A stretch of DNA of 64,000 bases from an uncultured Myxococcales bacterium (GCA_964491125.1 CAZBFJ010000001.1:168-64167), one strand, 5' to 3'; shown: positions 1,771 through 25,783, counted from the stretch's first letter. The notes: generated by a model from the letters alone, not told the origin. Program-made: numbers and translations.

Positions 1771-1771
1771 G

Positions 1772-4129: not shown

Positions 4130-4680
4130 GTCGCTTCCCCTTTCGTGGGTGGCGAGGCTGCCTCGTCGCGTAGAAAGCCTTCCGCGTCGAGCAGGGTGAT
4201 CCGCCGGTCCTCGACGCTGCCCACCCCGGTGATACCGGGAACGGCCACGCCCGGGGGCGGCGCCGCGATGTCACCCGAGGCGAGCTTGACCACGCGGGCC
4301 ACGCGGTCCACCAACAGCGCGAGCTGGCGACCGGCAACCTCGACCACCAGCAGTCGCGACTTCGGCGTCGGCAAGCCTCCCGCGAGCCCGGCCCGGGAAC
4401 GAGCGTCCACCACCGGCACGATGTGGCCACGCAGGCTCACGACGCCGCGAACGTGGGCGGGTGCCTCGGGGAGGCGGGTGAGGGTCGACACCCGCACGAT
4501 CTCGCGACACTGCAGGATGGGGACGCCGTATTCGTCGTCGCGCAGAAAGAAGGTCACGTACGCCGTGAGAGCCGTCGCGGACCGAGCCGCCGGCTCCGAT
4601 CCGGGCGCACGCAGGCTGTCCACGAACCCGAGCAACGAGCCATCCGCCACCCCGCCAACCTTCACGGGCTCAGAGGACAT
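4126..4680 (-). CDS. cheW: Chemotaxis coupling protein CheW
   Basis: The C-terminal 180 aa of ORF 4126..5025 is a CheW domain ([23 protein letters not shown]...[22 protein letters not shown]). The N-terminal 115 codons of the track ORF are Arg/Trp-rich junk that overlaps cheA. I chose the ATG at 4680 ([10 protein letters not shown]), which overlaps the cheA stop by 11 nt. Confidence 0.8.
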
Positions 4681-6382
4681 CGCCAAAGGCCTCCTCGCCG
4701 GCCGCGCTCGGCGTGCTTGGCTGCCGGGCCTTCCCGATCCGGCGCACCACCTCCATGCAATCGAGGATCGGCACCACCCGCCCCTGGGCCAGCACCGTCG
4801 CACCGGTGACCAGGTGGCAGGCTGCGAGCGTCCCGTCAAGCGGCTTGACCACGATCTCCTGGACGCCCGCCAGCCAATCGACCAGCAGGACACCGCGGTT
4901 GTTGCCTGCCTGCAGGACCACACCGTAGGGCCGGGTCCACGCCTGGGAGAGCCCCTGGCATCCGAGCAACCGCCCGCCATCCGCCGCGCGCACGAAATCG
5001 CCCCGCCAGGAAACCAGCAGGACACGGTTGATCTCCTGCAAATCGCGCTCGCGGCTCTCGAGGGTGTCGAGCACGAAACCGGCGGGGAGCGCGAAGCTCT
5101 CGCTGTCCACGCCGAAGATGAGCGCCCGCTGCAGCGACACGGTCACCGGCAGGTCCAGCACGAACTCCGTTCCCTTTCCCGGCGTGGAGCGGACGTCGAT
5201 GCCGCCGCCCAACCCCTGCACCGCCGCCGCCACCACGTCGAGCCCCACCCCACGTCCCGCGAGACTGGTGACCACCTTGGCGGTGGAGAAGCCCGCCTGG
5301 AAGATGAGGCGCTGCAGCTCCTGCGGACCCATTCCATCGACGTCCACGCCGTGCGCCTTGGCCTTGGCCGCGATCGCGGCGAGGTCGAGCCCACGACCGT
5401 CGTCGCCAATCCGCACGTCGACCCGGCCCTCCCGGAGCCGCGCGGAGAGCACGATCCTCGCCGCCAGCGGCTTGCCGGCGCGCACACGCTCCTCGGCGGG
5501 CTCGATCCCGTGCGCGACTGCGTTCCGCACGAGGTGGACGAGCGGCTCGAACAGGCGGCCGATGATCGCGCGATCCACGGCGGTCTCGCCGCCCTCGATC
5601 ACGAGCTCGATGGCCTGCCCGCGGTCACGGGCCAGGTCACGCAGGTAGCGCTGGAAGCGCCGGAACAGCGTCCCGATGGGCGCCAACCGGACCCGCAGGA
5701 GCTCGTCGCGCATCCGGCGTGCCAAGCGCCCGAGCTCGGCCACGAGCTGATCCATGAGGGCGACATCGCCGGCCTCGAACTGGTTGCGCGCGAATCGCCC
5801 ATGGATGCGCGCCAGCTCGGCCTGGCCGACGATCGTCTCGCCGCTGAGCTCGAGCAGCTCGTCGAGCGCCCCGTCCGCGATACGCGTGCTTCCCGGTCGA
5901 TCGCCCTCCGTGGCCGCTGCCGCCGGCTCCACCATCGGCACGACGGGGCGCGGGGCGCCTCCCTCGGCGGGCGCGCGCGCCCCCCGCGCCTGGGTCTGGG
6001 CCGCGGCGCGCGCCACGAACGCCTCCACCTCGTCCGCCGGGAGCTCCCCCGACGGAGCCGAGGCAACGAGCCGATCGAGCAGATCGCAACCTTCGATGAG
6101 CGCCTGCGCCAGGGCCGTCGGCTCGCCGGGCGGTGGGTCGGAAACTCGCGGGCACAGGTCCTCGAGCGCGTGCGCCAGCCGCTCGATAGGCCCAAATCCC
6201 ATCATGGCGCCGTTGCCCTTGATGGTGTGCAGGTTGCTGCGAATACCGCGCAGGACCGCGCTCCCGTCCCCGCCCGCCCGCCAGACCTCCTCGAGCTTGA
6301 GCAGGAGGCCCCCCACCTCTTGCGAGAACGGCCGCGTCTCGTCGACGAAGTCGTTGACCAAGGATGAGAAGATCCCTTCCAC
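4670..6382 (-). CDS. cheA: Chemotaxis histidine kinase CheA (HPt - dimerisation - HATPase_c - CheW-like)
   Basis: The HPt phospho-His motif is HTIKGNGAMMGF. The ATP-binding G-boxes are DDGRGLD and GRGVGLDVV. The C-terminal CheW-like domain is present. The track ORF continues upstream to 7132 as low-complexity Arg/Gly sequence overlapping the next gene. I chose the in-frame GTG at 6382 (VEGIFSSLVNDF), which lies after a GAGGGCGGC RBS and 11 nt past the upstream gene's stop. Confidence 0.85.
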   Translation of the reverse strand: MEGIFSSLVNDFVDETRPFSQEVGGLLLKLEEVWRAGGDGSAVLRGIRSNLHTIKGNGAMMGFGPIERLAHALEDLCPRVSDPPPGEPTALAQALIEGCDLLDRLVASAPSGELPADEVEAFVARAAAQTQARGARAPAEGGAPRPVVPMVEPAAAATEGDRPGSTRIADGALDELLELSGETIVGQAELARIHGRFARNQFEAGDVALMDQLVAELGRLARRMRDELLRVRLAPIGTLFRRFQRYLRDLARDRGQAIELVIEGGETAVDRAIIGRLFEPLVHLVRNAVAHGIEPAEERVRAGKPLAARIVLSARLREGRVDVRIGDDGRGLDLAAIAAKAKAHGVDVDGMGPQELQRLIFQAGFSTAKVVTSLAGRGVGLDVVAAAVQGLGGGIDVRSTPGKGTEFVLDLPVTVSLQRALIFGVDSESFALPAGFVLDTLESRERDLQEINRVLLVSWRGDFVRAADGGRLLGCQGLSQAWTRPYGVVLQAGNNRGVLLVDWLAGVQEIVVKPLDGTLAACHLVTGATVLAQGRVVPILDCMEVVRRIGKARQPSTPSAAGEEAFGDVL

Positions 6383-6393
6383 GCCGCCCTCGC

Positions 6394-8127
6394 CTACCCG
6401 GTCTTGCGTTCTCCGAAGATGGCCTCTGGCACGTCGGGGACGGGCCTCGAGCGGCGGAGGAACTCGTTCTCCAGCGCCAGGCCGAGCTGAAAAGCGGCCA
6501 GCTCGAAGATCTCGATGTCGCCGATCGGCCGATCGCGCGAACCGTTGTCCATGTAGATGGCCGCGATCATGCGAGCGCTCCCCGGCACGGGCAGGACCGC
6601 GATCTCCCCGGTACGAGGTCGATCGACCACCTGCGCGAAGCCCGCCGGGAGCTTCGCCTCGTCGTAGTAGACCCGCCGGGGACGACTGTCCGATAGGCAG
6701 TTCTTGAAGATCCCCGCGTCGCCGATGGGGACGATCAGCCCCTTGGTCACCCTCGCCAAGGGCGCGCCTTCGAGCGTGTTGCCGAACGCACCGAGCGCGA
6801 CGAGGCGGTCGAGATGCGGCACGAAGAGCACTCCGCGCTCGAGAGACTCGGCCACGGCCGCCATTAGGTTCGACGACACCGAGGTCCCGAGCAGCCCGGA
6901 GCGCAGGTCGGCGATGATCCGTCGCAAGCGGGCGAAGCTGGTGCGAATTCCCTCGGCGATCGCGACCTCGTTCGCCATGTACTTGCGCTGGCGCGCCGCC
7001 GACTGCATGCAGGCGACGATGGTGGCCGGAACCGCCGAGGTCACCGACAGGACGCCCACCTGGTACATCTCTCGCAACGGCGCGCGTCCCTCGAAGAGCG
7101 CGATGACCGCCGCCCGCGGACGGGACCGGCAAAGCGCCGCCAGCGTGGCCAAGGCGGTCGGCTGGTAGCGCAGGTCGACCACCACGATGGGGGGCGCCTC
7201 GCCGAGGAGGGAGGCGCCGGCATCGCGGAGCGCGACCGCCGAAACGTGGTCACCCCCGAGGGCCAAGAGCGCGTTGAGCTGCGCGCACAGCTCGGCGTCC
7301 GGCGAGACCAATTGGAAGCGAAGGCGGTCGACGGCCGGCATCGGCGTCGGCTCCCTAGGCGAAGAGTCGCGCGGGAGCCCGGGTCTCGCGCCGAGGCCGT
7401 CGCTCGCCTCCGTTTCGGCGACCAGCCCGGCCGGCCGCCTGGCGCCGCCCTTGGTCCCACTCTCCGCCGGCACCGCCTCGAGCTCGGCGCTCTCGCTCAG
7501 CGGCTGCCGGACCGTGACCTGCTCCGGGGGCTGGTCCCCGGTCGTCGCGTCCACGTCGTCCGGAGCCGGGATCACGTCATCGAAGCCCGTCAGCGGCTCT
7601 TCCGCGCCCGCCGACCCGGGCTCGAGCTCGCTCTCCTCGAGCCGCCGCAGGGCCTCCATCAGCACGGCCTGCGTGTCGAGGTCCAGCTTGGGGGCGCCGG
7701 TGAAGCGCGTGACCTCGACCACCGGGGTAAGGTCGTCGACAGCGAACTCGAAAGAGCCCGACTTCCAGGTGCAGATCTCGGCCACCACCCGCTCGATCTC
7801 CTTCGCCATCACGTCGCGGATGACCTCGGGGGTGGTGGCGTTCATCTTGACGAGGTAGTGGCCTATCGGGCGCCGCGGTCGGTCGCCGTTCTGCGCCGCC
7901 AACGCCGCGGCCAAGAGGGTTTGGTCGAGAACCCCGGCCGCCACCAGCAGCTCGCCTACCCGCAAGGTGCGCGCGTTCCACGCGCTCACGATGCGGCCGC
8001 GCTCGAAGCCGATGATCGCTTCCTCTTCCCCGTTGTTGATCGTCAAGCTCCCCGAGTGCCCGCCCACGCGAATGAGCTGCATCACATCCGCCACGGCCAC
8101 GTCCTCGATCATGCCCTGGAAGCTCAT
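6394..8127 (-). CDS. DUF4388 - receiver-like - GAF multidomain signalling protein
   Basis: The N-terminus (IEDVAVADVMQLIRVGGHSGSLTINNGEEEAIIGFERGRIVSA) matches the DUF4388 pattern. The middle segment (PIVVVDLRYQPTALATLAALC...) looks like a divergent receiver fold. The C-terminal roughly 150 aa (VLFVPHLDRLVALGAFGN...IAAIYMDNGSRDRPIGDIEIFELAAFQLGLALEN) is GAF-like. It sits 31 nt downstream of the GAF gene and 11 nt upstream of cheA. Confidence 0.75.
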   Translation of the reverse strand: MSFQGMIEDVAVADVMQLIRVGGHSGSLTINNGEEEAIIGFERGRIVSAWNARTLRVGELLVAAGVLDQTLLAAALAAQNGDRPRRPIGHYLVKMNATTPEVIRDVMAKEIERVVAEICTWKSGSFEFAVDDLTPVVEVTRFTGAPKLDLDTQAVLMEALRRLEESELEPGSAGAEEPLTGFDDVIPAPDDVDATTGDQPPEQVTVRQPLSESAELEAVPAESGTKGGARRPAGLVAETEASDGLGARPGLPRDSSPREPTPMPAVDRLRFQLVSPDAELCAQLNALLALGGDHVSAVALRDAGASLLGEAPPIVVVDLRYQPTALATLAALCRSRPRAAVIALFEGRAPLREMYQVGVLSVTSAVPATIVACMQSAARQRKYMANEVAIAEGIRTSFARLRRIIADLRSGLLGTSVSSNLMAAVAESLERGVLFVPHLDRLVALGAFGNTLEGAPLARVTKGLIVPIGDAGIFKNCLSDSRPRRVYYDEAKLPAGFAQVVDRPRTGEIAVLPVPGSARMIAAIYMDNGSRDRPIGDIEIFELAAFQLGLALENEFLRRSRPVPDVPEAIFGERKTG

Positions 8128-8158
8128 CGCGTCCCTCGCATGGGAGCTGCCCTGGTCA

Positions 8159-8920
8159 TCACCCCTTCTTGACGAGCTTGATCAGCCCCTCCAAGGTTCG
8201 CAGCTTGCGAGCGGCGCGCGCGTAGACGCGCGAGGCAAAGAGCGCCGAGGCCGCGTGCGCGCCCAGAAGATCGAGCAGCTCGCGGTCTTCTTCTTCGAGG
8301 GCGGCCTTGTGCTCGAACAGCTTGGTGACGACGAGCGCCCCGACCGTGACGTCCTGCACGCGCAGGGGCACGACCACCAGCACCGGCGAGCTTTCGGTCG
8401 GGCCGAAGCGCAACAGGCCGTCGAGCAACGACGCGTCGATCAAGGGATCGCCCCCGCTGTACGTCGGCTGGCTCGCCCAGGGAGCCGCGATCTCTCCCTC
8501 GCGCAGGCGGATCTCGAGCGCGCTGCCATCTTCGGCGTGCAGGAGCAGCAGGAAGTGCTCGGCCCCGAGCAGGTTGACCGCGATCTCGGCGATCGTGGAC
8601 TGCACGTCGGCGGGATCCAGCGTGGCGTGTAGCTGGTACGTCGCCACGTAGAGGGTCATCAGGCGCCCGACCTGGTGCTCGACCTCGACCAGGCGAGAGG
8701 CCAGCTCCTCCCGATCGTTCTCGGCCTGGGCCAAGCGAGCCTCGCGCTCCGGAATCTCCGTCGAAGCAGCCCGCTGCTGCACCACGGACTGACTCGCTTC
8801 CTCGATGGCCCTCTGCGCGTCGCGAATGAGCTGCCGGGCGCGCATCAGCGTGGCGAGCGGGTCCGTGCTGTCTAGCCCCGTGCTGGATGAACCGGCGGCC
8901 ATGGCTTCACCGTCCTTCAT
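8159..8920 (-). CDS. Coiled-coil + GAF domain protein
   Basis: 253 aa. The N-terminus is a coiled coil (RARQLIRDAQRAIEEASQSVVQQRAAS...). The C-terminus is a GAF-like fold (NLLGAEHFLLLLHAEDGSALEIRL...VLVVVPLRVQDVTVGALVVTKLFEHK). The ATG at 8920 overlaps the cheY-like stop (ATGA). Confidence 0.7.
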   Translation of the reverse strand: MKDGEAMAAGSSSTGLDSTDPLATLMRARQLIRDAQRAIEEASQSVVQQRAASTEIPEREARLAQAENDREELASRLVEVEHQVGRLMTLYVATYQLHATLDPADVQSTIAEIAVNLLGAEHFLLLLHAEDGSALEIRLREGEIAAPWASQPTYSGGDPLIDASLLDGLLRFGPTESSPVLVVVPLRVQDVTVGALVVTKLFEHKAALEEEDRELLDLLGAHAASALFASRVYARAARKLRTLEGLIKLVKKG

Positions 8921-9324
8921 GGAAGCGTGGGAGCGGAGGTGGGGGCCGGGCTGGTGGTGAGACGCCCGATGATCTTGAGCAGGTCCTCGCGCTGGAACGG
9001 CTTCTTGAGGTAAGCGACGGCTCCCGCCTGGAGCCCGCGGGCCACGTCCTCTTCCTTTCCCTCGGTCGAGACGATGACCACCGGGATCTTCGCGAAGTCG
9101 TCGCTCTGCTTGACCTCCTTCAAGAACTCGAGCCCCGTCATGTGCGGCATGTTGATGTCGAGGATGATGACATCGACGTCCTCGTGCTCGGCCAGCCGGG
9201 CCAGACCTTCACGGCCGTCGTGGGCCGCGATCAGCATGCAGGGCCGCAGCATCACCTCGTACATCTTGTGGATGAGGCGCGAGTCCTCGACCACGAGCAC
9301 CTTGCGAGTCTTGGCGACGTTCAA
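8917..9324 (-). CDS. cheY: CheY-like single-domain response regulator
   Basis: The C-terminus of track ORF 8917..10074. I chose the TTG start at 9324 (MNVAKTRKVLVVEDS...) after a GGGAGG RBS with 6-nt spacing. The receiver has the acidic pair EDS, the phospho-Asp in ILDINMP, VST and LKKP. The upstream part of the track ORF is Pro/Ser/Arg junk. Confidence 0.8.
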   Translation of the reverse strand: MNVAKTRKVLVVEDSRLIHKMYEVMLRPCMLIAAHDGREGLARLAEHEDVDVIILDINMPHMTGLEFLKEVKQSDDFAKIPVVIVSTEGKEEDVARGLQAGAVAYLKKPFQREDLLKIIGRLTTSPAPTSAPTLP

Positions 9325-13367: not shown

Positions 13368-13443
13368 GGGGCTGTAGCTCAGCTGGGAGAGCGCCTGAAT
13401 GGCATTCAGGAGGCCGACAGTTCGATCCTGTTCAGCTCCACCA
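13368..13443 (+). tRNA. tRNA-Ala (anticodon GGC)
   Basis: Cloverleaf folded by hand. The acceptor stem is GGGGCTG/CAGCTCC with the G3:U70 alanine identity pair. D-arm GCTC-AGCTGGGA-GAGC. Anticodon stem CCTGA/TCAGG with loop ATGGCAT (GGC). T-loop TTCGATC. The 3' CCA is encoded. Confidence 0.85.
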
Positions 13444-13707: not shown

Positions 13708-16170
13708 TCAGCCCCCGGCCCGGGGCGCCGCCAGGGTCTGGCGGAGGTGCTCGAGGCTCGGTGGCTTGGCCATGTGACGATCGAAGCCGGCCTCGGCCGC
13801 CCGCTGCAGGTCCTCCGGCAGCGCGTAGCCGGTCAGGGCCACGAGCAGGGTTCCCGCGAGCGATTGCTCGGCGCGCAGGGCCCGAGCCACGTCGTAGCCG
13901 TCCATCCCCGGCAGCCCGATGTCGCAGAGCACGACGTCGGGGTGGTGCTCGAGGGCGTGCCGCAGCCCGGCCGGGCCATTGTGCGCGACCCATACCTCGT
14001 GCCCTTCGAGCTCGAGCAGCTCCCGTAGGCTCTCGGCGGCGTCCGCGTGATCTTCGATGATGAGCACGCGTCCCTGGGATACGGGAGAGCTCGCCAAGAG
14101 GGCCTCGTCTCCCTCGGCCGCCGTCATGTCGAGCGGCAGCCGCATCGCGAACTCGGAGCCCTGGCCTGGGCCGCGGCTCTGCGCCTCGACGGTGCCGCCG
14201 TGCAGCTCGACCAGCTCCTTGACGAGGGCCAGGCCGAGCCCCAGCCCGCCCCGGCTGCGATCGAGCGTCGTCTCCGCCTGCATGAAGGGCTGGAACAGAC
14301 GCTCCACGAGCTCGGGCCTCATGCCCATGCCCGTGTCGGCGACGCGCACGACCGCTTGCCGGGTTGCCACGTCGGCGGCGACGGTCGCGGTGACCCGTCC
14401 GCCCCGCGGGGTGAACTTCACCGCGTTGTGCAGAAGGTTCCCCACCGCCTGCGCCATCCGGCTGCGGTCGGCGTTCACCCGGACCGGGACACCCGGCAGC
14501 GCGAGCTCGAGGGCCACGCCCGCCTTGTCGAACTCCAGCCGGTAGTCCTCGCCCGTGCTCCGCACCAGCTCGCCGAGGTCCAGGCGTTGCCTTTGCAGGT
14601 GGATCTTGTTGCGGGTGATACGGGTGACGTCGAGCAGATCGTCGACCAGGCGGGACAGCTGGTCGACCTGGCGATCGATGATGGCCTTCACCCGCCCCGC
14701 CTGCTCGCTCCCCGGGACCGCTTGGTCGAGCACCGCGAGGCAGTTCTTGATCGGGGCGAGCGGGTTCCGCAGCTCGTGCGAGAGCGTGGCCATGAACTCG
14801 TTCTTGCGCTGATCCGCCTCGATGAGCTGCGCGTTGGTGATGCTGAGCGCCCGGCTGGTTTCCATGCGCTGGACGGCGGCGGCGACCTGGTCCGTAACCG
14901 CGCGCATCAGCTCGACCTCGTCCTCGGCGAAGCGCGGTCGGTGCCGCGTGCCAAACGAGAGAGTCCCAAGCACGCGATCGCCCTGTCCGAGCAACGGATG
15001 GCAGCAGTAAGCCTGCAGGCCGTAGCCACGGATGAGCTCGGCGCGCGGGTCATCGGAGTGCTGCAGGTCCTCGGCGAGGATGCGGGTGGCATCCCGTGCC
15101 ACGCAACCGCAGATGGCCACGCCGAAGTCCAGCCGTTCGATCTTGGCGGCCGCGTCGGCCGGGATCCCCGCGAAGGCATTGAGGCGCAGCCGACCTTCGG
15201 CCGGCTCCGCCATGAAGTTGAAGAACGCCTGGCAGTCGAGGTGAGCCATGACCTCGTGGCAGAGCTCGTCGATCACCCGCTGGGGCTCCTCGGCGCGCAG
15301 CAAACGGCCGGCGGTGCGCGCCAGCAAGCGAAAGCGGGCCTCGCTGGCACGCAAGGCGTCCTCGGCGCGCTTGCGCGGGCTGATCTCGGTCGAGACGCCG
15401 AGCACGTGCTCGACCGTCCCGTCGGGGGCGCGCTCGGCCGCCAGCTTGAGCAGGAAGTGCCGTGGTTCTCCCGGCGGATCGAAGGCGAACTCGACCTCCT
15501 CGGAGATCCCGGTGGCGAAGACGCGCGCGATGGCGCGTTCCCAGCGGTCGCACAGGGCCGCCGGCATGCCCATCTCGCGGTTGGTCCTGCCCAGGAATGC
15601 GGAGCTGGCGATGCCGGTCACTTCTTCGGCGCGCCGGCTGAGGTACACCACCCGCTGCTGGCGATCGAAGCGCATCAGGATCGAGGGGATGTTCTCCGCC
15701 AACCCACGGAAGCGGCGCTCGCTGTCTTCCAGGGCCCGGTGCGCGGCCTCGAGCTCCGCGACCCGTCGGGCGAGCTCCGCCTGCTGGAAGTTGAGCTGGA
15801 GCAGGATGCGCGCCTTGCTGGTGAGGATCTTGGGCTCGATGGGCTTGACCAGGAAGTCCACCGCGCCGGCGTCGTACCCGCGGAAGATGCGGACGCGGTC
15901 GTGCATCCCCGCCGTGACGAAGATGATGGGAACGCGTCGGGTGCGCTCGGCGCCGCGCATGAGCTCGGCGAGCTGGAAACCGTCCATCTCCGGCATCTGG
16001 ATGTCCAGGATGGCAAGGTTCACGTCGTAGGCGAGAAGCAGCTCGAGTGCCTCGGCCCCCGAGCTGGCTTCGAGCAGCTCGGCCTCGAGCGAGCGCAACT
16101 GGGCCCGCAGCGCCAACAGATTCTCGGCGCGATCGTCGACGAGGAGGATGGTCGGTCGGGTCATGGTCAT
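13708..16170 (-). CDS. Hybrid sensor histidine kinase (REC - PAS - GAF - HisKA - HATPase_c - REC)
   Basis: 820 aa. N-terminal receiver (ILLVDDRAENL...LDIQMPEMDG). H-box FMATLSHELRNPL. N-, G1-, G2-boxes. C-terminal receiver (VLIIEDHADAAE...VLCDIGLPGMDG). The ATG at 16170 overlaps the cheR stop. Confidence 0.9.
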   Translation of the reverse strand: MTMTRPTILLVDDRAENLLALRAQLRSLEAELLEASSGAEALELLLAYDVNLAILDIQMPEMDGFQLAELMRGAERTRRVPIIFVTAGMHDRVRIFRGYDAGAVDFLVKPIEPKILTSKARILLQLNFQQAELARRVAELEAAHRALEDSERRFRGLAENIPSILMRFDRQQRVVYLSRRAEEVTGIASSAFLGRTNREMGMPAALCDRWERAIARVFATGISEEVEFAFDPPGEPRHFLLKLAAERAPDGTVEHVLGVSTEISPRKRAEDALRASEARFRLLARTAGRLLRAEEPQRVIDELCHEVMAHLDCQAFFNFMAEPAEGRLRLNAFAGIPADAAAKIERLDFGVAICGCVARDATRILAEDLQHSDDPRAELIRGYGLQAYCCHPLLGQGDRVLGTLSFGTRHRPRFAEDEVELMRAVTDQVAAAVQRMETSRALSITNAQLIEADQRKNEFMATLSHELRNPLAPIKNCLAVLDQAVPGSEQAGRVKAIIDRQVDQLSRLVDDLLDVTRITRNKIHLQRQRLDLGELVRSTGEDYRLEFDKAGVALELALPGVPVRVNADRSRMAQAVGNLLHNAVKFTPRGGRVTATVAADVATRQAVVRVADTGMGMRPELVERLFQPFMQAETTLDRSRGGLGLGLALVKELVELHGGTVEAQSRGPGQGSEFAMRLPLDMTAAEGDEALLASSPVSQGRVLIIEDHADAAESLRELLELEGHEVWVAHNGPAGLRHALEHHPDVVLCDIGLPGMDGYDVARALRAEQSLAGTLLVALTGYALPEDLQRAAEAGFDRHMAKPPSLEHLRQTLAAPRAGG

Positions 16171-16985
16171 TGCCTTCGGTAGATTCGCTGGTCCCTCACG
16201 TGTTCGCTGAAAGCCTCGGTATGCGTGGAGAACCGCAGGGTCTCCTTGGCGCCGAGCCCGAGAAACCCCTGGCGCACCAGGGCCTCGGCGAAGAGGCCGA
16301 GCGTGCGGTCCTGCAGGGTCCGATCGAAGTAGATGAGGACGTTCCGGCAGCTCACCAGCTCGACCTCGGCGAAGACCACGTCCGTCGCCAAGCTGTGCTC
16401 GGCAAACAAGATCTTGCGGCGTAGCGAGGAGTCGACGATGGCCGCCCCGTAGCCCACGGCGTAGTGGTCGGCCAGCGAGCCGCGACCGCCCGCCTCGAGA
16501 TACGCGCGGCTGAAGCCCGCCATCCGCTCGAGCGGGTAGATGCCCTTCTCCGCCACCGCCAGGGCCCCCGGAGCGATGTCGGTGGCGTAGATGAGGGCAT
16601 TGTCGAGGAGTCCTTCTTCCCGCAACAAGATGGCGAGCGAGTACGCCTCCTCCCCGGTGCTACATCCTGGAACCCACACCTTGAGAGAGGGACGGGTACG
16701 TAGCCACGCGACCACTTGTTGGCGGATCGCGCGGAAGTACCCAGGATCGCGGAACATCTCACTGACCTGCACGGTCAACATCGAGAGCAGCTGGCCCCAC
16801 GCGTCGGCGTCGTGGAGCACGAGCTCTTGCAGTCCCGAGACCGACCGCACCCGAAAGCGTCGCACGGCGTCTTCGATCCTGCGTCTGATCGAGGATGGGG
16901 CGTAGTGGCGGAAGTCGTGGTGGTACTTGGCGTAGATCGCCTCGAAGAGGAGGGGTATCTCGATGTCCGGCTCGCCGAGCGCCAT
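16167..16985 (-). CDS. cheR: Chemotaxis-type protein-glutamate O-methyltransferase CheR
   Basis: 272 aa. SAM-binding motif VWVPGCSTGEEAYSLAILL plus a conserved CheR N-terminal helical subdomain. There is no TPR or other extension. Confidence 0.88.
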   Translation of the reverse strand: MALGEPDIEIPLLFEAIYAKYHHDFRHYAPSSIRRRIEDAVRRFRVRSVSGLQELVLHDADAWGQLLSMLTVQVSEMFRDPGYFRAIRQQVVAWLRTRPSLKVWVPGCSTGEEAYSLAILLREEGLLDNALIYATDIAPGALAVAEKGIYPLERMAGFSRAYLEAGGRGSLADHYAVGYGAAIVDSSLRRKILFAEHSLATDVVFAEVELVSCRNVLIYFDRTLQDRTLGLFAEALVRQGFLGLGAKETLRFSTHTEAFSEHVRDQRIYRRQ

Positions 16986-16995
16986 CGACCGCCCC

Positions 16996-19900
16996 CTACT
17001 TCGGCAACCACACCTTCATCAACGACACCAGTCGGTCGACATCGAGCGGCTTCGGGACGTAGTCGCTCATCCCCGCGTCGATGCAGGCACGCTGATCATC
17101 CGCCATCGCCTTGGCCGTGAGCCCGATGATCGGCAAATTGGCCCAGCCTCGCCGCCGGCGAATCTCCCGCGTCGCGGTCAAGCCGTCCATGACGGGCATC
17201 ATGACGTCCATCAGCACGAGGTCGATGCCCTGCGACGGGTCCTGTTCGGCGCGCGCCAGCGCATCGACGGCTTCCTGGCCGTTGCGCGCGACCCGCAGCT
17301 TAGCGCCGCGCGGCTCGAGGACGCTCGACAGCGCGAAGATGTTTCGCGCATCGTCCTCGACCACCAGGATGTTCCGCCCTTCGAACCCGGCATCGCGCTG
17401 TCGCGCGACGCGCAGCATCCGCTGCTGTTCCGCCGGCAGGGAGGTCTCGATCTGGTGCAGGAACAACGACACCTCGTCGAGCAGCCGCTCGGGAGTGCGC
17501 GCACCCTTGATGACCACCGAGCTGGCATGGCGCCGCAGTCGCTGCTCTTCTTCGCGCGTGAGCGGCCCCGAGATGTCCACGACGACCGGCGGGTAAGAGC
17601 ACGCTTCGTCCGCCGCCATCCGATCGAGCACATCGTAGACGGACATGTCGGGCAGGGAGAGGTCGAGCACCACGCAATCGAACGCCGTGCTCCTGAGCTG
17701 GGCGAGCGCGTCGCCACCCCTCCCGACCACCACGATCTCGACGCCGTCGTGCTCGAGCAGCGCGCGCACCGATGCGCGCCTGGCCTCCGCCCCCTCCGCG
17801 ACGAGGATCCGGCGCATCGGCTCCACCAGCTTCCGCTCGAGCCGTTCGATCGCCCCGACGAGCTGGTCCCGTTCGGCGGGCTTGAGCACGTACCCGATCG
17901 CGCCGAGCTCCAGCGCCTGTTGGGCATAGTCGTCGACGGAGAGCACGTGGACCGGGATGTGGCGGGTGGCCGGGCTCGCCTTCAGCCGCTCGAGCAAGCC
18001 GAGGCCCGACTGATCGGGCAAGTGCACGTCGAGCAGCACGGCGCTCGGCGGGCAGCGCTCCGCCAGCTCCATCCCCTCCCGACCGGTGGCTGCCACCAGG
18101 CAGCGAAAGCGCCGTTCCCTCACGAGATCCCGCAGGATCCCTGCGAAGGCTGGATCGTCTTCGATCACCAGGATGACCCGTTCGCCGGGGGCCACCTTGC
18201 CGCGGTCGTCTTCCACCCGTGGGCCGGACTGCCGAGACGAATCGTCACGCCCCATGCTCGTCGCGACCGGGTTCGCAAGGGTGGCACCGGGACGCTGCCC
18301 CGGCGGGGGCGTGCACGCGAACACCTTGTCGATGTCGCTCGGCAGGGTCAACGTGAAGGTGCTGCCCTTGCCGACCTCGCTCACGACAGCGAGCGTGCCG
18401 CCGAGACGGTAGGCGAGCTCGCGCGAAATCGTGAGACCGAGGCCGCTGCCGCCGTACTTGCGATCCGTGCTGCCGTCGACTTGACGAAAGGCCTCGAAGA
18501 TCAGCTCGTGCTGGTCCGCGGGGATCCCGAGGCCCGTGTCGCGAACCGAGAAGGCCACGCGACTGTCCGGTGCCGTCGCGATGCGCAGCGCGACCTCGCC
18601 GGTCTCCGTGAACTTGACGGCGTTGGCGAGGAGGTTGCGCAGGATCTGGAGCAGGCGCAACGGGTCCGACTTGATCGAGGGGGGCACGTCCGGCGCCGTC
18701 TCGATGGCGAGAGCGAGACGCTTCTGCCGGGCCATGGGCTCGAAGGTCTTCTTGAGACCGCCCACGATCGTCGTCAACGTCACGGCTTCGGGGCGAATGT
18801 CGACGTGGCCGGCCTCGATGCGCGACAGATCCAGGATGTCGCTGAGCAGGGCGAGCAGATCGGTGCCCGACGCGTGGATGGCCGATGCGTACTTGACCTG
18901 CTCGGAGGTAAGGTTGCCGTCCGGGTTGTCGGCGAGCAGCTTGGCCAGGATGAGCGCGCTGTTGAGCGGCGTACGCAGCTCGTGACTCATGTTGGCCAGG
19001 AACTCCGACTTGTAGCGATTGGCCCGCGCCAACGCCTCCGCCTTCTCGAGTTGCTCGAGCTGCGCCCGTGACAGGTCGTCCCGCTGCTGCTCGAGCACGT
19101 GCGCCTGCTCCTCGAGCTGCGCATTGGTCTGCTCGAGCTCCGCCTGTTGCGCCTCGAGGCGGCTCTGCGATTCGGCGAGCGTCTGGCTCTGCTCCTCCAT
19201 CTCCTCGTTGATGGCTCGCAGCTCCTCTTGCTGGACCTGCAGCTCCTCGGCCTGCTGCTGCGACTCGACCAGCAGGGCGGCCTGGCGTGCGCGATACTCC
19301 GCCGAGCGGAAAGCGATGGCGATCCGCGCGGCGGTCGCCTCGAGAAGATCGACGTCCGGCGCGCCGATCGGGCGCAAGAACCCGATCTCGACCACGGCCT
19401 TGACCTCGCCGTCGATCTGCGCCGGCAAAACAAGCAGATGGGCGGCCCGTGTCCGGCCGAGCGTCGAGCTCACGGGCAGGTAGTCCGCCGGCAGGTTCTC
19501 GAGGCGCAGGATGCGCCGCTCCTTGAGCGCCTGACCGACCAAGGTGTCCCCCGCGCGCAGCACCTCGGGCACGGCGGCGGAGGCGGGGACCGCATAGCTG
19601 GCGCGCCGGCGCAGCTCGCCCCCTGGCCCGGCCACGTACAAGACCCCGATGGGGCTCTCGAGGTAGCCGCACAGGAAGCGGAGGACGTTGTCCGCCAGCC
19701 GCTCGACGCCCTGCTCGCCCTGCATCCGATTGGCGAGCTCGTTGTGGCCCGAGCGAATCCATTCTTGCTCGCGCAGCAGGAGGCTCGTCAGGATGAAGCG
19801 GCGGACCATGACGGCCACGGTCCACAAGGTCACCATCCCGAAGACGCGGTTGACCTCGGAGATGACCACGATGCGCGCCTCCGACACGGGCGAGAGAACG

Positions 19901-20112
19901 AAGCCAATCCCGATGAGCACGCTCGAGACCGCGGCGCTGAGCAGCGGCATCCGGGGCCGCGATTGCTCGAGCATCAACCCCAGCGGGACGAGGTAGAAGA
20001 TCCAGGCGGCGATGCCGATCGGGGTCAGCGCGTCGGCCGCGAAGACCGCCGCGGTGCTGATCCCGGCGGCAAGCAGGAGGGCCGGCCGCTTCTTCCCCAT
20101 CAACCGTTCCAT
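16996..20112 (-). CDS. Membrane hybrid histidine kinase (polytopic N-terminus - GAF - Q/E-rich coiled coil - HisKA - HATPase_c - 3x REC)
   Basis: 1038 aa. N-terminal TM helices. GAF-like segment. An roughly 90-aa Gln/Glu-rich coiled coil. H-box FLANMSHELRTPLNS. ATPase G-boxes. Three receivers (ILVIEDDPAF..., RILVAEGAEAR..., NILVVEDDARN...DLVLMDVMMPVMDG). Confidence 0.88.
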   Translation of the reverse strand: MERLMGKKRPALLLAAGISTAAVFAADALTPIGIAAWIFYLVPLGLMLEQSRPRMPLLSAAVSSVLIGIGFVLSPVSEARIVVISEVNRVFGMVTLWTVAVMVRRFILTSLLLREQEWIRSGHNELANRMQGEQGVERLADNVLRFLCGYLESPIGVLYVAGPGGELRRRASYAVPASAAVPEVLRAGDTLVGQALKERRILRLENLPADYLPVSSTLGRTRAAHLLVLPAQIDGEVKAVVEIGFLRPIGAPDVDLLEATAARIAIAFRSAEYRARQAALLVESQQQAEELQVQQEELRAINEEMEEQSQTLAESQSRLEAQQAELEQTNAQLEEQAHVLEQQRDDLSRAQLEQLEKAEALARANRYKSEFLANMSHELRTPLNSALILAKLLADNPDGNLTSEQVKYASAIHASGTDLLALLSDILDLSRIEAGHVDIRPEAVTLTTIVGGLKKTFEPMARQKRLALAIETAPDVPPSIKSDPLRLLQILRNLLANAVKFTETGEVALRIATAPDSRVAFSVRDTGLGIPADQHELIFEAFRQVDGSTDRKYGGSGLGLTISRELAYRLGGTLAVVSEVGKGSTFTLTLPSDIDKVFACTPPPGQRPGATLANPVATSMGRDDSSRQSGPRVEDDRGKVAPGERVILVIEDDPAFAGILRDLVRERRFRCLVAATGREGMELAERCPPSAVLLDVHLPDQSGLGLLERLKASPATRHIPVHVLSVDDYAQQALELGAIGYVLKPAERDQLVGAIERLERKLVEPMRRILVAEGAEARRASVRALLEHDGVEIVVVGRGGDALAQLRSTAFDCVVLDLSLPDMSVYDVLDRMAADEACSYPPVVVDISGPLTREEEQRLRRHASSVVIKGARTPERLLDEVSLFLHQIETSLPAEQQRMLRVARQRDAGFEGRNILVVEDDARNIFALSSVLEPRGAKLRVARNGQEAVDALARAEQDPSQGIDLVLMDVMMPVMDGLTATREIRRRRGWANLPIIGLTAKAMADDQRACIDAGMSDYVPKPLDVDRLVSLMKVWLPK
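19018..19290 (-). repeat. Q/E-rich heptad coiled-coil segment inside the hybrid HK; resembles MCP methylation helices
   Basis: Residues about 275-365: LLVESQQQAEELQVQQEELRAINEEMEEQSQTLAESQSRLEAQQAELEQTNAQLEEQAHVLEQQRDDL. It is low-complexity Q/E with EE/EQ/QE pairs in heptad register. Coordinates are approximate. Confidence 0.4.
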
Positions 20113-20162: not shown

Positions 20163-21125
20163 TCAGGAGCGCCGCAGGCTCCCTCTCCTAGCACGCCGCT
20201 CCATCCTTGTCAGCCTCGCCGGCCGCGTCCTCCGGCCGGCCCCCCCGGGGCGCGGCCGGGCCGGCGCCGGGCGGGACCGCGGGAAGACCAGGGCGAACGC
20301 CCCTTCCCCGAGCCGCACCAGCGTGACGGCGCCAGGACGGCGCGCGCGCCGGTAGATCGGGTACCAGGGCTCAGCCCGTGCCCTCGGGCTCCTCTCGAGC
20401 AACTCGGGGACGTAGAGATCGAGCGCGACGTAGCGCTCGCCGGCCGACGACGCCAGGGCCGGGCCGAAGCTGTAGGGCGCGAGCTCGCCCTTCGGGTACC
20501 GATCATTGTGCAGGGCGCCCCCGTAGCTCACCACCAGCCGGCTGTTCGGCCGGGCCAGGGCCGCGCGGAGCTGGAACAGAAGCTGGTCACGCGTCAGGCG
20601 CAGCAGGCGATCGAAGTCGACTCCCTGCCCAGTCATCATCGCCTTGTAGTCCCGGCACCCGATCTCGAGGATACCGGGCTCGATGCCGGCGGCCTTCGCC
20701 TGGCGGAGCAGGGTCACCACCTCGCTCTCGGTCCGCCGCGGGCGCTCGGTGGTCGTCTCGACCTGCGCGACGGCGGCCTTCTCGGCCGCACCGCACGCAC
20801 CGGTGGCTCGCCAGGTTTCGACGACGAGGTGGGTGGCGCCGGCCGCGCGCAACGGCGGCAAGAGCTCGGCGGTGAAGCGGGCGAGCGCCGAGCGAACCCG
20901 CGCGGTGGCCCGGGTCTGGTGCAGCTCGCCGACGGCCAGGACGCGCGGACGGCTGGCCAGCACCACCTCGAGGGCGGCGGCCGCGCTCGGGTACACGGCC
21001 GCGCTCGGCGGGCCGGCCGCGGCGGGTTCCGCGGCGCGCGCGACCGCGCCGCCGCCATCGGGCACAGGCGCGAGGCCGGCGGCGAGGAGCGCGAGCATCG
21101 AGCCAAGGACAGCCGGCGCGAGCAT
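20163..21125 (-). CDS. Secreted hypothetical protein, possibly ChaN/Tiki-like
   Basis: Signal peptide MLAPAVLGSMLALLAAGLAP. A VLAVGELHQTRA segment resembles the GExH motif of ChaN/Tiki/TraB proteins. The C-terminal 40 aa are Arg-rich low complexity, so the true stop may lie earlier or there may be a frameshift. Confidence 0.5.
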   Translation of the reverse strand: MLAPAVLGSMLALLAAGLAPVPDGGGAVARAAEPAAAGPPSAAVYPSAAAALEVVLASRPRVLAVGELHQTRATARVRSALARFTAELLPPLRAAGATHLVVETWRATGACGAAEKAAVAQVETTTERPRRTESEVVTLLRQAKAAGIEPGILEIGCRDYKAMMTGQGVDFDRLLRLTRDQLLFQLRAALARPNSRLVVSYGGALHNDRYPKGELAPYSFGPALASSAGERYVALDLYVPELLERSPRARAEPWYPIYRRARRPGAVTLVRLGEGAFALVFPRSRPAPARPRPGGAGRRTRPARLTRMERRARRGSLRRS

Positions 21126-22329: not shown

Positions 22330-25300
22330 CTACGGCGGCAGGTAGATGATGGTCTTGCAGCCGGCGGTGCACGCGCCGTTGCGGCCATTGTCCGGACCGT
22401 CGTCGCACTCCTCCGGCCCGTTCAGGATGGCGTCTCCGCAGTGAGGCGCCAGCTTGCACTGCGGCGTGCAGCCGCCGTACTCGCCGTTGTTCGTCCCGTC
22501 GTCGCACGCCTCGGGACCGTTCGGAATCCCGTCGCCGCAGTGGGGCGCGTAGATACACGCCGGAGCGCAACCGCCGTACTCACCGTTGTTCAGCAGCTCC
22601 CCGTCGTCGCACTGCTCGGGCGGCTGGATCTTGCCGTCCCCGCAGCCGCCCGGGAAGCGACAGGCCTCCGTGCACGCGGGGTCGTTCGACATGGTCGGCT
22701 CGCACTCCTCGCCGTAGTCCTCCTGCAACTGCCCGTCCCCGCACCTCGGCGCGGGCGAGCAGTCCGGATTGCAGGTGCCGTACGTCCCGTCGTTGGCACC
22801 ATCGTCGCACTGCTCGGTGCCGTTCGTCTGTCCGTCGCCGCAGTAGCCGCCGCGCCGGCAGTTCGCCATGCAGCCGCCATAGCCCTCCGTCGGATCGGTC
22901 GTCGCCAGGTTGCCGTCGGCCTCGTCGCACTCCTCGTCGTAACTCGACTGCACCACGCCGTCGCCGCACCGACCAGGGACCTTGCAGTCCGGCCCGCAGC
23001 CGCCGTCGGAGAGGCCGTACTCGTCGTCGTTCTGGCCGTTGTCGCAGTCCTCGACCCCCTCCTCGACCTTGGCGTCGCCGCAGTACGGACCGAGCCGGCA
23101 CTCCACCGTGCACTCGTTGTAGCCCCCCCGGTTCTCGTCGCCGTTGTCGCACTGCTCGCCGGGCGCCACCACGCCGTCGCCGCAGATGGGCCCGCAGGCG
23201 CTCGGCTCGTCGTTGAAGCCGCTCAGCGTGAGCTTGTAGGTCGACGCCGTCGTCTGCCGCTCGGCCTGGAACACGACGATCTCGTAGACCCCGTGGTTCT
23301 GCATGCCGAGGTTCACCGTCTTCGTCACCCCCGTGCACGTCGTCACCTCGCCAACCCGCGTGCACCCCTCCCCCTCGGTCGGCGTCACCGTCACCGTGGC
23401 CCCGCCGCTGTCGTTGAGCACCAGCTTTCCATTCACCGGCGTGTGAATACCGCCCATGTCCACCGCCAGCTTGCGGTTCACGAACACCCAGACGTCGTCG
23501 TCACCCGTGAACTCCAGGGTATAGCTGTTCTCGGCGATGTAGCTGAACCAGTAGCGCACCTCGCTCGTGAAGCTGAAGTTGTGCAGGGGTTTGCCCGGCT
23601 CGTCTGCCCAGTCACCCCCGTACGACGGCGGGATCTTGGCCGGGCTCATGTCGGTGGCCGACGAGAAGTCGGAGTCGTCGAGGGGGAAGAAGAGCGGGCT
23701 GCCCTCCATCCGGGTGATGTTCGCGACGCACGCGTTGGTGTTGCTCGTGCCCCACGGGGTGCACTGGGCGAAGCACTCCATGCTGCCGTCGTCGACGTAC
23801 GCGGGGGGGTTGCAGTTGGCGCAGGTTCCGGTCTCGCACCAGCGCACGTTGGTGTACCCGAGGTACTGCTCGTCGTCCTTCCACCAGTTGACGAACCCGC
23901 CCTGCCCGTTGTTGTGGAGCAGGATGGTCGAGACGACCGTGCTGTTGGTCCCCGGCACGTCCCGGTACCACTGCCTGAACGAGTCAGCGCTGGTGATCTT
24001 CGCCGCGGTCCCCGAGGTGCCCGAGTACACCGGCTTGCCCTCGCCGTCGAGGGTGTCCTTGACCAGCCCGGTGGTCGCCCTGAAGCTGCCGGTGATGCTC
24101 TCCTCGAAGTCCGGGTGCCCGAACTTGAAGTCGCGGTAGGTGACCGGCACGGCCATCGTGTCGGCGCCGTTGTCCGGCTGGTGGCACTCCCAGCCCTCCT
24201 CGGTCTTGCACTCGCTCGAGCACCCGTCGCTGTCGTTGGTGTTGCCGTCGTCGCAGTCCTCGTTGACCACCAGGCCGTCGCCGCACTTCGAGGTGCACGT
24301 CCCCGCCGCCGAGTCGCACTTGGGCTCGAAGTGGCAGGTCGGCGAGCAGCCGTCGTTCGGGACGGTGTTGCCGTCATCGCACCCTTCCGAACCCTCGAGC
24401 TTGCCGTCGCCGCACTTCGTCTCGTGGCAATTGGGAGGAGTGCCATTGCAGGCCCAGCCGGGGTTGTACCGGCACGTGCTCGAGCAGGCCTTGTCCATGT
24501 TGGTGCCCGGCCCGGCGGGGTCGCACTGCTCGTAGGGCGAGAGCACCGTACCGTCGCCGCAATCGGGCACGCACGGCGCATTGAAGAACGGACAGGCGTA
24601 CCCTGGCTCGACCTTGCACAGGCCCGTGCAGCCATCGCCCGGCGAGTCGTTGCCGTCGTCGCACTCCTCGTCTCCTTCGATCGAGCCGTTGCCGCACTTG
24701 ACGGTAGGGCACTTGCAGAGCGCACCGGGTGAGCAGATACACCCGTCGTCCTTGCCCTTGCAGTCCGCCGAGCAGCCGTCGCCGTCCTGCTGATTGCCGT
24801 CGTCGCACACCTCGCTGAGGGTGCCTTGCACCACGCCGTCCCCGCAGCGCGGAGCCGGCTTGCACGGGCTGCCCGGCACCGGACAAACGAAACCGCCCTC
24901 CACCTGACAGGAGCCGCTGCACCCGTCGTTCGCGTCGGTGTTTCCGTCGTCGCAATTCTCGCCGGCCTCGATGCGTTTGTTACCGCATTGGGAGACCCGT
25001 TCGCAGAGCTGCCCCGCCACGCACTTGAACGCGGGATCCTGCACGGCGCAGTCGGCGCTGCAGCCGTCGCCGTCCTTGGCGTTGTTGTCGTCGCAGACTT
25101 CCCCCGCGCCGATCTCGCCGTCGCCGCATACGATGTTGCGGGTGCACTTGCCCTCCTTGGGGCAGGTCCAGTTCTTCTCGATCTTGCAGACGCCGTTGCA
25201 GCCGTCGCCCGGCAGCACGTTGTTGTCGTCGCATTCCTCGACGCCGCCCTGGTTGTTCATGCCGTCCCCGCACGCTTCGGGGTACTGGGCCTTGCACCCG

Positions 25301-25590
25301 GCGGTGCTGGTCGAGTTGCACACCGCCGACGAGCCGGTGGTTCCCCCCGTGGCGTTCGGCCGACTGGTCACGTCGATGGTGATGCCACCCACGCCGATGC
25401 CGCCCGTGGGATTGCTGCCGCTCGGGTCCTTGACGCCGCCCGAGCCCTTCGAGCCGCCCGGATCCTGGATGGAGGCATTGGTGCACGACACGCCCGCGGC
25501 GCACGCAAGCGCGGCCGCCAAACCGACCGCCGCCAACCCGTGCGTAACCTGGCTACCTTGCACCGGTTTTCTTGCGTCGGCTGTTGTCAT
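22330..25590 (-). CDS. Large secreted lipoprotein: Myxococcus-type cysteine-rich repeats flanking a fibro-slime/PA14-like domain
   Basis: About 1086 aa from the ATG at 25590 (MTTADARKPVQGSQVTHGLAAVGLAAALAC-AAG; lipobox-like ALAC). There are about 25 copies of CGDGxxxxxEECDDGNxxxGDGCSxxC. The central roughly 320 aa (VTYRDFKFGHPDFE...GDDDVWVFVNRKLAVDMGGIHTP...) match the fibro-slime domain pattern. The track ORF starts 19 codons further upstream, at 25647. Confidence 0.85.
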   Translation of the reverse strand: MTTADARKPVQGSQVTHGLAAVGLAAALACAAGVSCTNASIQDPGGSKGSGGVKDPSGSNPTGGIGVGGITIDVTSRPNATGGTTGSSAVCNSTSTAGCKAQYPEACGDGMNNQGGVEECDDNNVLPGDGCNGVCKIEKNWTCPKEGKCTRNIVCGDGEIGAGEVCDDNNAKDGDGCSADCAVQDPAFKCVAGQLCERVSQCGNKRIEAGENCDDGNTDANDGCSGSCQVEGGFVCPVPGSPCKPAPRCGDGVVQGTLSEVCDDGNQQDGDGCSADCKGKDDGCICSPGALCKCPTVKCGNGSIEGDEECDDGNDSPGDGCTGLCKVEPGYACPFFNAPCVPDCGDGTVLSPYEQCDPAGPGTNMDKACSSTCRYNPGWACNGTPPNCHETKCGDGKLEGSEGCDDGNTVPNDGCSPTCHFEPKCDSAAGTCTSKCGDGLVVNEDCDDGNTNDSDGCSSECKTEEGWECHQPDNGADTMAVPVTYRDFKFGHPDFEESITGSFRATTGLVKDTLDGEGKPVYSGTSGTAAKITSADSFRQWYRDVPGTNSTVVSTILLHNNGQGGFVNWWKDDEQYLGYTNVRWCETGTCANCNPPAYVDDGSMECFAQCTPWGTSNTNACVANITRMEGSPLFFPLDDSDFSSATDMSPAKIPPSYGGDWADEPGKPLHNFSFTSEVRYWFSYIAENSYTLEFTGDDDVWVFVNRKLAVDMGGIHTPVNGKLVLNDSGGATVTVTPTEGEGCTRVGEVTTCTGVTKTVNLGMQNHGVYEIVVFQAERQTTASTYKLTLSGFNDEPSACGPICGDGVVAPGEQCDNGDENRGGYNECTVECRLGPYCGDAKVEEGVEDCDNGQNDDEYGLSDGGCGPDCKVPGRCGDGVVQSSYDEECDEADGNLATTDPTEGYGGCMANCRRGGYCGDGQTNGTEQCDDGANDGTYGTCNPDCSPAPRCGDGQLQEDYGEECEPTMSNDPACTEACRFPGGCGDGKIQPPEQCDDGELLNNGEYGGCAPACIYAPHCGDGIPNGPEACDDGTNNGEYGGCTPQCKLAPHCGDAILNGPEECDDGPDNGRNGACTAGCKTIIYLPP
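22348..23196 (-). repeat. C-terminal block of cysteine-rich tandem repeats (coding)
   Basis: ORF residues about 818-1100. CGDG.{5,12}CD[DEN]G repeats, about 11 copies. Coordinates are approximate. Confidence 0.6.
24178..25272 (-). repeat. N-terminal block of roughly 27-aa cysteine-rich (CGDG...CDDGN...DGC) tandem repeats (coding)
   Basis: ORF residues about 126-490. The same C/D/G periodicity recurs about 13 times. Coordinates are approximate. Confidence 0.6.
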
Positions 25591-25783
25591 TGCGACCTCG
25601 AGTGCCAGACGGGGGTTTCGTAGCGATCCGCACCGTTTGGGTCCCATTGTATCAGCTTTCGCCCAACTTCATTGAGGCGGCGCCACCTCGACCTCGCCCG
25701 AGCGTGGGCCAGGACACGCGGCGATGCGCGACGTGGGATCGCTGCCCACATCGCCCGCGATGGTCTACTTGTGCTACCTCGGG

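Follow-up and report, generated by a model that had tools for sequence, protein, structure and literature searches.

What does a CheR methyltransferase act on when its gene lies between two histidine kinase genes? The question is raised by a 64-kb stretch of DNA from an uncultured Myxococcales bacterium (GCA_964491125.1, CAZBFJ010000001.1:168-64167; G+C ~70%; hereafter the window, to whose full length all coordinates refer), in which three consecutive open reading frames (ORFs), all on the minus strand, encode a large hybrid histidine kinase (kinase 1, HK1), a standalone CheR-family methyltransferase and a second hybrid kinase (kinase 2, HK2). An initial annotation of this DNA had given the positions and domain content of the three genes, which ORF and Pfam analyses bore out, and had proposed that the CheR methylates the kinase itself, which carries a coiled coil rich in glutamate and glutamine, or its partner. 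The analysis described here places the locus, very probably, in a published family of signaling cassettes, the MAC2 or BmsA-like systems, and makes it moderately probable that CheR methylates the coiled coil of HK1 and thereby tunes the kinase.

Assignment of the middle gene to the CheR family agrees with Pfam, which places CheR_N and S-adenosylmethionine (SAM)-binding CheR domains in the 272-amino acid (aa) protein (121.8 and 37.1 bits, with both cut-offs at 27; CheR E 3e-35), and with alignment to the solved structures 5FTW and 1BC5, in which the motifs VW..CSTGEE, FR(D/E) and CRNV.IYFD are retained. The roles of these residues we take to be those of the Salmonella enzyme. Among the matches listed, the protein belongs to a tight clade of standalone enzymes of ~270-290 aa, with identities of 61-67% from rank 4 down and named members that include Betaproteobacteria, Methylocaldum, Polyangia and Binatia. 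CheR is under purifying selection within the part of this clade that lacks CheB, the ratio of nonsynonymous to synonymous substitution rates (dN/dS) being 0.12-0.14 against its two closest CheB-less relatives and 0.28 against a third. Because of the former values, and because the SAM-binding motifs align with those of solved structures, the gene does not appear to be decaying.

This CheR lineage goes with a coiled-coil kinase and not with CheA, CheW or a methyl-accepting chemotaxis protein (MCP). In all 17 loci from other organisms with readable flanks, recovered with either CheR or HK1 as the query, CheR lies between a GAF/coiled-coil hybrid kinase upstream and a receiver-first kinase downstream, the kind of kinase-cheR-kinase synteny for which the initial annotation had suggested a search. 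These loci span Pseudomonadota, Myxococcota, Planctomycetota and Binatia. CheR retrieved those of Methylocaldum, Binatia, Polyangia, Roseococcus, Paracoccus, Pseudogemmobacter and plasmids of Agrobacterium and Pseudochrobactrum, while HK1 retrieved those of Myxococcus, Phenylobacterium and Pirellulales, where each of the three homologues is followed by CheR, CheB and a second kinase. Contigs of Methylocaldum, Binatia and Polyangia and the Agrobacterium and Pseudochrobactrum plasmids likewise carry the order HK1-like kinase, CheR, CheB and receiver-first kinase, their HK1-like kinases having a GAF-HisKA-HATPase-REC architecture and 1036-1148 aa. The CheB of these cassettes (192-209 aa) is an esterase domain without a receiver. 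Over 932-1046 aligned residues, HK1 itself shares 44-59% identity with its counterparts upstream of CheR in other genomes. A scan of a genome collection with CheR gave 12 loci, and CheR of this type, and with it the four-gene cassette, was found on 88 records of plasmids from Agrobacterium, Sphingobium, Rhizobium, Ensifer and other genera. Of these records, 32 are typed as conjugative, and mobility of the module is evident.

HK1 consists of a hydrophobic N-terminal region, a GAF domain, a long coiled coil, HisKA and HATPase_c domains and three receivers (Pfam for the domains, hydropathy for the N-terminal region). The hydrophobic segments are a probable membrane anchor; the matching region of a Polyangia orthologue is assigned to Pfam DUF4118, and CHASE3, present in many HK1 homologues, was not matched by Pfam in HK1. 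Pfam PF28019 is listed for some homologues. The coiled coil lies between the sensor module and the kinase core (residues 283-347, within a helix spanning 251-395), and the Q/E-rich segment reported there is real: Glu and Gln make up 49% of residues 283-347, against 12% of the whole protein. Leu or Met recurs at each seventh residue in 10 of 12 heptads and was assigned to position d, while position a is occupied by polar or small residues (A, Q, N, S, Q, Q, N, A, R, Q, A, N). Pairs of Glu-Glu or Glu-Gln flanking a and d, which the initial annotation had named beforehand as the feature to look for, are present: Glu-Glu occupies b,c in three consecutive heptads (289/290, 296/297 and 303/304), and acidic or acidic/amide pairs occupy e,f (E306/E307, E327/Q328 and E334/E335).

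Conservation of these residues was examined in 120 HK1 homologues, about 50-69% identical from GAF to HATPase. The b,c pairs are conserved at 96-99%, E306/E307 at 88/83% and E334/E335 at 79/88%. The exposed residues E289, E290, Q292, E296, E297, E303, E304, Q322, Q323, E325 and E327 are conserved at 95-100%, and Asn302 and Asn330, at core a positions, are invariant. Residues 348-366, which come next in this helix, vary far more. One orthologue carries a deletion of exactly one heptad in the coiled coil. When the coiled coil by itself served as the query of a protein search, only 19 short fragments were matched, and these were uninformative as to architecture. An AlphaFold2 monomer model of an HK1 fragment (61-sequence alignment, mean predicted local distance difference test score, pLDDT, of 88.5) contains an unbroken helix at residues 251-395 (fragment residues 132-276), which joins the last GAF helix, by way of the coiled coil, to DHp helix 1 with His377; averages of pLDDT for 10-residue blocks over residues 283-347, the MAC core, are 93-96. 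The coiled coil is presumably two-stranded and parallel.

The idea that a CheR acts on such a kinase is a rediscovery of a known published proposal. According to passages in two later papers that cite it, the MAC class was proposed from comparative genomics by Wuichet and Zhulin in 2010 (bioRxiv 10.1101/2022.05.07.491037; PMC6943060). A MAC protein is receptor and kinase at once, with CheB/CheR incorporated in MAC1 and separate enzymes associated with MAC2 (bioRxiv 10.1101/2022.05.07.491037; PMC6943060). Profiles for both classes exist in MiST3 (PMC6943060); those for MAC2 and CheR-MAC2 are not among Pfam or NCBIfam models, and membership of the window was judged from its features against the descriptions in those passages of the two citing papers rather than from MiST3 profiles. 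With MAC2 the locus shares sensing and a histidine kinase in one protein, a conserved coiled coil and an adjoining separate CheR of a non-chemotaxis class. It differs from MAC2-like cassettes in that CheB, found in 8 of those examined, is missing and in that the partner kinase has an extra PAS-GAF module.

A second body of work describes what seems to be the same cassette. Hybrid kinase 3082 of P. brassicacearum (PSEBR_a3082), described as an orthologue of the CHASE3/GAF kinase BmsA of Pseudomonas alkylphenolica, has three receivers and adjoins CheR, CheB and another hybrid kinase; the BmsA/3082 cluster has been linked to biofilm formation and motility, and the third receiver of 3082 passes phosphate to the HPt domain of GacS in chimeras (PMC8175716). 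The BmsA cluster of P. alkylphenolica, PSEBR_a3082-3079 of P. brassicacearum and the window share an order that leads from a three-receiver GAF hybrid kinase through CheR to a second hybrid kinase (PMC8175716), and Pseudomonas CHASE3/GAF kinases are among the top matches of HK1, at ~51% identity over GAF, coiled coil and kinase core. The BmsA cluster differs in its periplasmic CHASE3 sensor, in place of which HK1 has a multi-pass hydrophobic N-terminus, and in its CheB, which the window lacks. Orthology of HK1 with BmsA would rest on the description of BmsA, not on its sequence. Taken with the gene order and domain content, the locus is very probably a member of this MAC2/BmsA-like family.

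MAC1 proteins provide a further connection. Two loci recovered by chance encode a CheB-CheR-coiled coil-PAS-kinase protein and a CheR-coiled coil-PAS-kinase protein, both large and both with coiled coils built of successive NEEL heptads. On each of these coiled coils the HK1-family coiled-coil profile reached 22 bits, whereas the highest score among 500 composition-matched shuffles was 12.9 bits; the profile did not match the coiled coils of the window's MCP, RNase Y or RecN. The heptad motif (xEELxxx or NEEL repeats) is thus shared, and the fused CheR domains are ~34% identical to the CheR of the window. MAC1 differs in uniting enzymes and coiled coil in a single polypeptide and in placing the coiled coil ahead of PAS, whereas that of HK1 directly precedes DHp. 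Because the enzymes and such a coiled coil are fused in one protein elsewhere, independent evidence is provided that they work together. A putative functional link between CheR and the HK1 coiled coil is backed by comparative genomics; what survives of the initial proposal that CheR acts on the kinase itself is its support from conserved gene order, near-invariant Glu pairs and fused enzymes, and what does not is the likeness to MCP sites.

The partner kinase and the esterase gene vary more. HK2 is, by sequence, the counterpart of the usual cassette partner kinase: its N-terminal receiver, which is canonical, shares 58-64% identity with the N-terminal receivers of those cassette partner kinases to which it was compared, and this receiver and the kinase-plus-receiver core are each about 60% identical to a 516-aa partner kinase from Polyangia, relative to which ~280 aa of PAS-GAF are inserted between receiver and kinase core. 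The sensor region of this partner kinase turns over rapidly; lengths between 372 and 944 aa are found in different cassettes, as are HisKA and HWE types, with or without PAS/GAF. A receiver-less CheB lies between CheR and kinase 2 in 8 of the 17 loci. In the closest relatives (CheR 96%, 79% and 65% identical to that of the window), cheR runs straight into the receiver of kinase 2 with no cheB, and the other CheB-less cassettes are those of Roseococcus, Paracoccus/Pseudogemmobacter and one further proteobacterium. Because CheB-less cassettes sit at four places or more among CheB-containing ones in a rough neighbor-joining tree, with cheR kept each time, the pattern points to repeated loss of cheB. 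In the window's clade the coiled coil has lost none of its Glu pairs. The possibility that a remnant of cheB persists between cheR and kinase 2 was considered and rejected, there being no room for one and no similarity.

The mechanism that we consider moderately probable is the following. CheR, with SAM, would turn the conserved Glu-Glu pairs of the exposed b,c and e,f faces into methyl esters. The HK1 coiled coil should be only marginally stable as a dimer, because 18 of its 65 residues are acidic and 3 are basic and because its a positions are polar, and neutralization of charge on this acidic helix (net about -15) with its polar core would change or tighten the packing of the dimer helices. 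Such a change would reset the kinase/phosphatase balance of the adjoining DHp, amounting to chemoreceptor-like adaptation or gain control inside a histidine kinase. HK1 would phosphorylate its own canonical receivers and probably also the N-terminal receiver of HK2, which would add PAS and GAF inputs and then pass the signal to an output; a phosphorelay between the two kinases, by a putative route, is plausible. Methylation would be reversed by the receiver-less CheB esterase in CheB-containing relatives. In the window, because cheB is absent, methyl groups may be removed by a CheB encoded elsewhere or through protein turnover.

Several observations weigh against this mechanism, among them the comparison with classical chemoreceptor adaptation. 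Both involve an enzyme of the CheR family and Glu-Glu pairs that recur at heptad spacing along an exposed helix face, and both would control a kinase through charge neutralization; the window differs in having no MCPsignal domain, methylation consensus or hairpin bundle in HK1 and no CheA or CheW in the module, and the CheB of cassette relatives differs in lacking a receiver domain. The consensus applied was [ASTG][ASTG]xx[EQ][EQ]xx[ASTG][ASTG], a pattern that reportedly goes back to Alexander and Zhulin in 2007. It has no match in HK1 or HK2, against two in the window's MCP, and the relaxed form is also unmatched in HK1, where EELRAI stands in place of the family consensus EELRVS, which itself fits only the relaxed form. 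Pfam gave no MCPsignal match in HK1 at E <= 0.01, and the HK1-family coiled-coil profile scored 0.6 bits on the window's MCP. The AlphaFold2 model shows no helical hairpin, only a straight helix without a turn (in a monomer, from which the oligomeric state is deduced), which differs from the antiparallel four-helix bundle known as a CheR substrate. The resemblance to MCP methylation helices noted in the initial annotation is compositional only; it does not extend to consensus, MCPsignal homology or hairpin geometry.

Other observations point the same way. MAC proteins were called uncharacterized in 2022, with no methyl ester reported on any of them (bioRxiv 10.1101/2022.05.07.491037). Neither an HPt domain nor an output regulator was found in the module. 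No CheB is encoded in the 64-kb window (tblastn with four cassette CheBs, E > 0.1), which is awkward for a model of reversible adaptation, and in the CheB-less Paracoccus/Pseudogemmobacter clade the Glu pairs are partly eroded although CheR is retained. Finally, 9.6 kb away from the module is an MCP that has two canonical sites and whose cluster includes neither a CheR nor a CheB.

The alternative that survives best builds on that MCP: CheR would serve conventional chemoreceptors, especially the MCP of the downstream cluster, and its position between the kinases would reflect co-regulation only. It had been stated that no MCP, CheA, CheW or CheB is adjacent, which holds for the immediate neighbors and, in the case of CheB, for the entire window; a chemosensory cluster with MCP, CheA and CheW does occupy 1-9324 on the same strand, 4.4-12 kb downstream of the kinase module. 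The two strict methylation-consensus sites of its MCP, QQ479/480 and EE493/494, are two heptads apart (residues 475-498), the cluster is conserved in 32 metagenome loci, in none of which CheR or CheB occurs within up to 10 kb, and module and cluster share a strand in the window and in close relatives. Because the cluster has no CheR or CheB and the MCP sites are canonical, CheR could serve this MCP, either alone or besides HK1. The same CheR clade is found between the same kinase types, however, in genomes and plasmids without such a cluster nearby, and ilvC, a helicase gene and the opposite-strand tRNA separate the module from the cluster. Moreover, CheR scores better against the MAC1 CheR domains (BLAST, E about 2e-32 to 4e-32) than against solved chemotaxis CheRs (phmmer, E 2e-22 and 6e-14), although E values from the two programs are not strictly comparable. 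We regard exclusive service to conventional chemoreceptors as unlikely.

It is somewhat less likely that the coiled coil is a structural signaling helix only, with CheR acting elsewhere in the module, on kinase 2 or a receiver, or non-catalytically. Histidine kinases often have a long coiled-coil linker ahead of DHp, and both the want of an MCP-type consensus in HK1 and the unreported state of MAC methylation as of 2022 (bioRxiv 10.1101/2022.05.07.491037) fit such a role. A purely structural helix would not readily account for exposed Glu and Gln residues that are near-invariant beside a variable stretch of the same helix, or for the same motif pattern where CheB and CheR are fused to the coiled coil, and kinase 2 is a poor candidate for a conserved substrate because its size, type and domains vary widely between cassettes.

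A variation on the favored mechanism, which is as doubtful as the structural-helix reading, would make methylation of the coiled coil a one-way latch reset only by protein turnover, with the PAS-GAF region of HK2 taking over the feedback role of the esterase, or would have one CheR serve both the kinase and the neighboring MCP and so couple two-component and chemosensory pathways. It is hinted at by the occurrence of PAS in kinase 2 in three of four CheB-less clades and in none of eight CheB-containing cassettes (loci L002-L007 and the window against L013-L015, L019, L021 and L026-L028, a small sample compared with kinship ignored). That the methylation branch is a decaying remnant of cheB loss in which CheR no longer matters is very unlikely: cheB is absent from the window and its closest relatives and Glu pairs are eroded in another CheB-less clade, but the dN/dS values of 0.12-0.14, the intact SAM-binding motifs, the full set of Glu pairs in the window's clade, the tight packing of cheR between the kinases and its retention after cheB loss in at least four separate branches of the neighbor-joining tree all argue otherwise.

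The details of the locus itself are collected in the table below. The spacing of 10 nucleotides between HK1 and cheR was verified. The described overlap (ATGA) of the cheR stop with an ATG for HK2 is present, while the start of HK2 is ambiguous: automatic gene calls on identical metagenome contigs begin HK2 at the second ATG, 2 nucleotides past the cheR stop, and begin HK1 at Met5. Because the three-gene order recurs on independent metagenome contigs and samples, mis-assembly was ruled out as its source. Three Response_reg stretches in HK1 agree with the three receivers described, of which the second is degenerate: two of five conserved receiver residues are gone (E-G replaces the acidic pair and Ile replaces Thr87), and the equivalents of Asp57 and Lys109 are retained. 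The intergenic region of ~500 nucleotides between HK2 and ilvC contains a tRNA-Ala (GGC) on the opposite strand, and the module therefore probably ends at HK2 on its downstream side. Scans for promoter and terminator consensus sequences performed no better than chance.

Features of the kinase-CheR-kinase module and of the downstream chemosensory cluster in the 64-kb window
Feature	Residues	Position	Strand	Basis
Kinase 1 (HK1)	1038 aa	16996..20112	-	ORF and translation, Pfam
HK1 hydrophobic segments	~10-115	19768..20085	-	hydropathy peaks
HK1 GAF	135-268	19309..19710	-	Pfam GAF_2 E 9e-12
HK1 continuous helix	251-395	18928..19362	-	AlphaFold2 prediction
HK1 MAC core	283-347	19072..19266	-	heptad table, conservation in 120 homologues
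HK1 HisKA, His377	368-435	18808..19011	-	Pfam E 2e-18
HK1 HATPase_c	483-592	18337..18666	-	Pfam E 1e-29
HK1 receiver 1, canonical	about 644-757	17842..18183	-	E/D, D57, S87, K109 equivalents present
HK1 receiver 2, degenerate	about 767-880	17473..17814	-	receiver-residue comparison
HK1 receiver 3, canonical	915-1031	17020..17370	-	conserved receiver residues all present
Standalone CheR-family methyltransferase	272 aa	16167..16985	-	ORF, Pfam
Kinase 2 (HK2)	820 aa	13708..16170	-	ORF, Pfam
HK2 REC (N-terminal)	8-119			Pfam
HK2 PAS	159-268			Pfam
HK2 GAF	294-434			Pfam
HK2 HisKA	456-519			Pfam
HK2 HATPase_c	568-681			Pfam
HK2 REC (C-terminal)	about 701-812			Pfam
tRNA-Ala (GGC)		13368..13443	+	ARAGORN
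CheY-like receiver		8917-9324	-	
GAF protein		8159-8920	-	
PATAN/DUF4388 protein		6394-8127	-	
CheA		4670-6382	-	
CheW		4126-4680	-	
MCP		1772-4129	-	
HEAT-repeat protein (runs off window)		1-1770	-	

Further observations concern neighboring genes and the cassettes of other organisms. Upstream of HK1, at a distance of 50 nucleotides and on the same strand, a 320-aa protein (20163-21125, minus strand) with a signal-peptide-like N-terminus and no Pfam match is encoded; it is kept in close relatives (loci L022, L023 and L029), is absent from more distant cassettes and is possibly part of the operon. A protein of 1105 aa encoded at 22330-25647 (minus strand) has seven DUF4215 repeats and matches PA14 weakly; taken together with the G+C content of 70% and the presence of Polyangia or Myxococcus among the best matches, it suggests that the DNA is myxobacterial. 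The HEAT-repeat neighbor in the chemosensory cluster presumably recalls the Che7/Cpc7 system of Myxococcus. The sequence METFTV toward the C-terminus of the MCP was considered as a CheR-tethering pentapeptide and rejected, as it contains no Trp, directly follows the helix and is not at the extreme C-terminus. The relative whose CheR is 96% identical to that of the window has a 944-aa kinase 2 with an additional PAS (L029 10822-13656), and an IS3 element directly follows cheR in Sphingobium sp. TKS. Two ORFs are called for the HK1 homologue of Myxococcus, of Phenylobacterium and of Pirellulales, one for a kinase of 750-807 aa and one for a multi-receiver protein of 373-421 aa, with an overlap of 70-91 nucleotides in each case (L026 10334-10424, L027 10181-10259 and L028 10184-10253); the split may be natural, may stem from a sequencing or annotation artefact common to all three, or may mark a site of frameshifting.

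What is new in this locus is a natural variant of the cassette without the esterase and with a remodeled, PAS-GAF-extended partner kinase, a variant that shows cheR kept under selection after the loss of cheB. For testing the action of CheR, orthologous clusters in cultivable Pseudomonas, Agrobacterium and Myxococcus would serve equally well, and the locus adds nothing in that respect. If it is true that CheR methylates a histidine kinase directly, chemotaxis-style adaptation would extend to ordinary two-component signaling.

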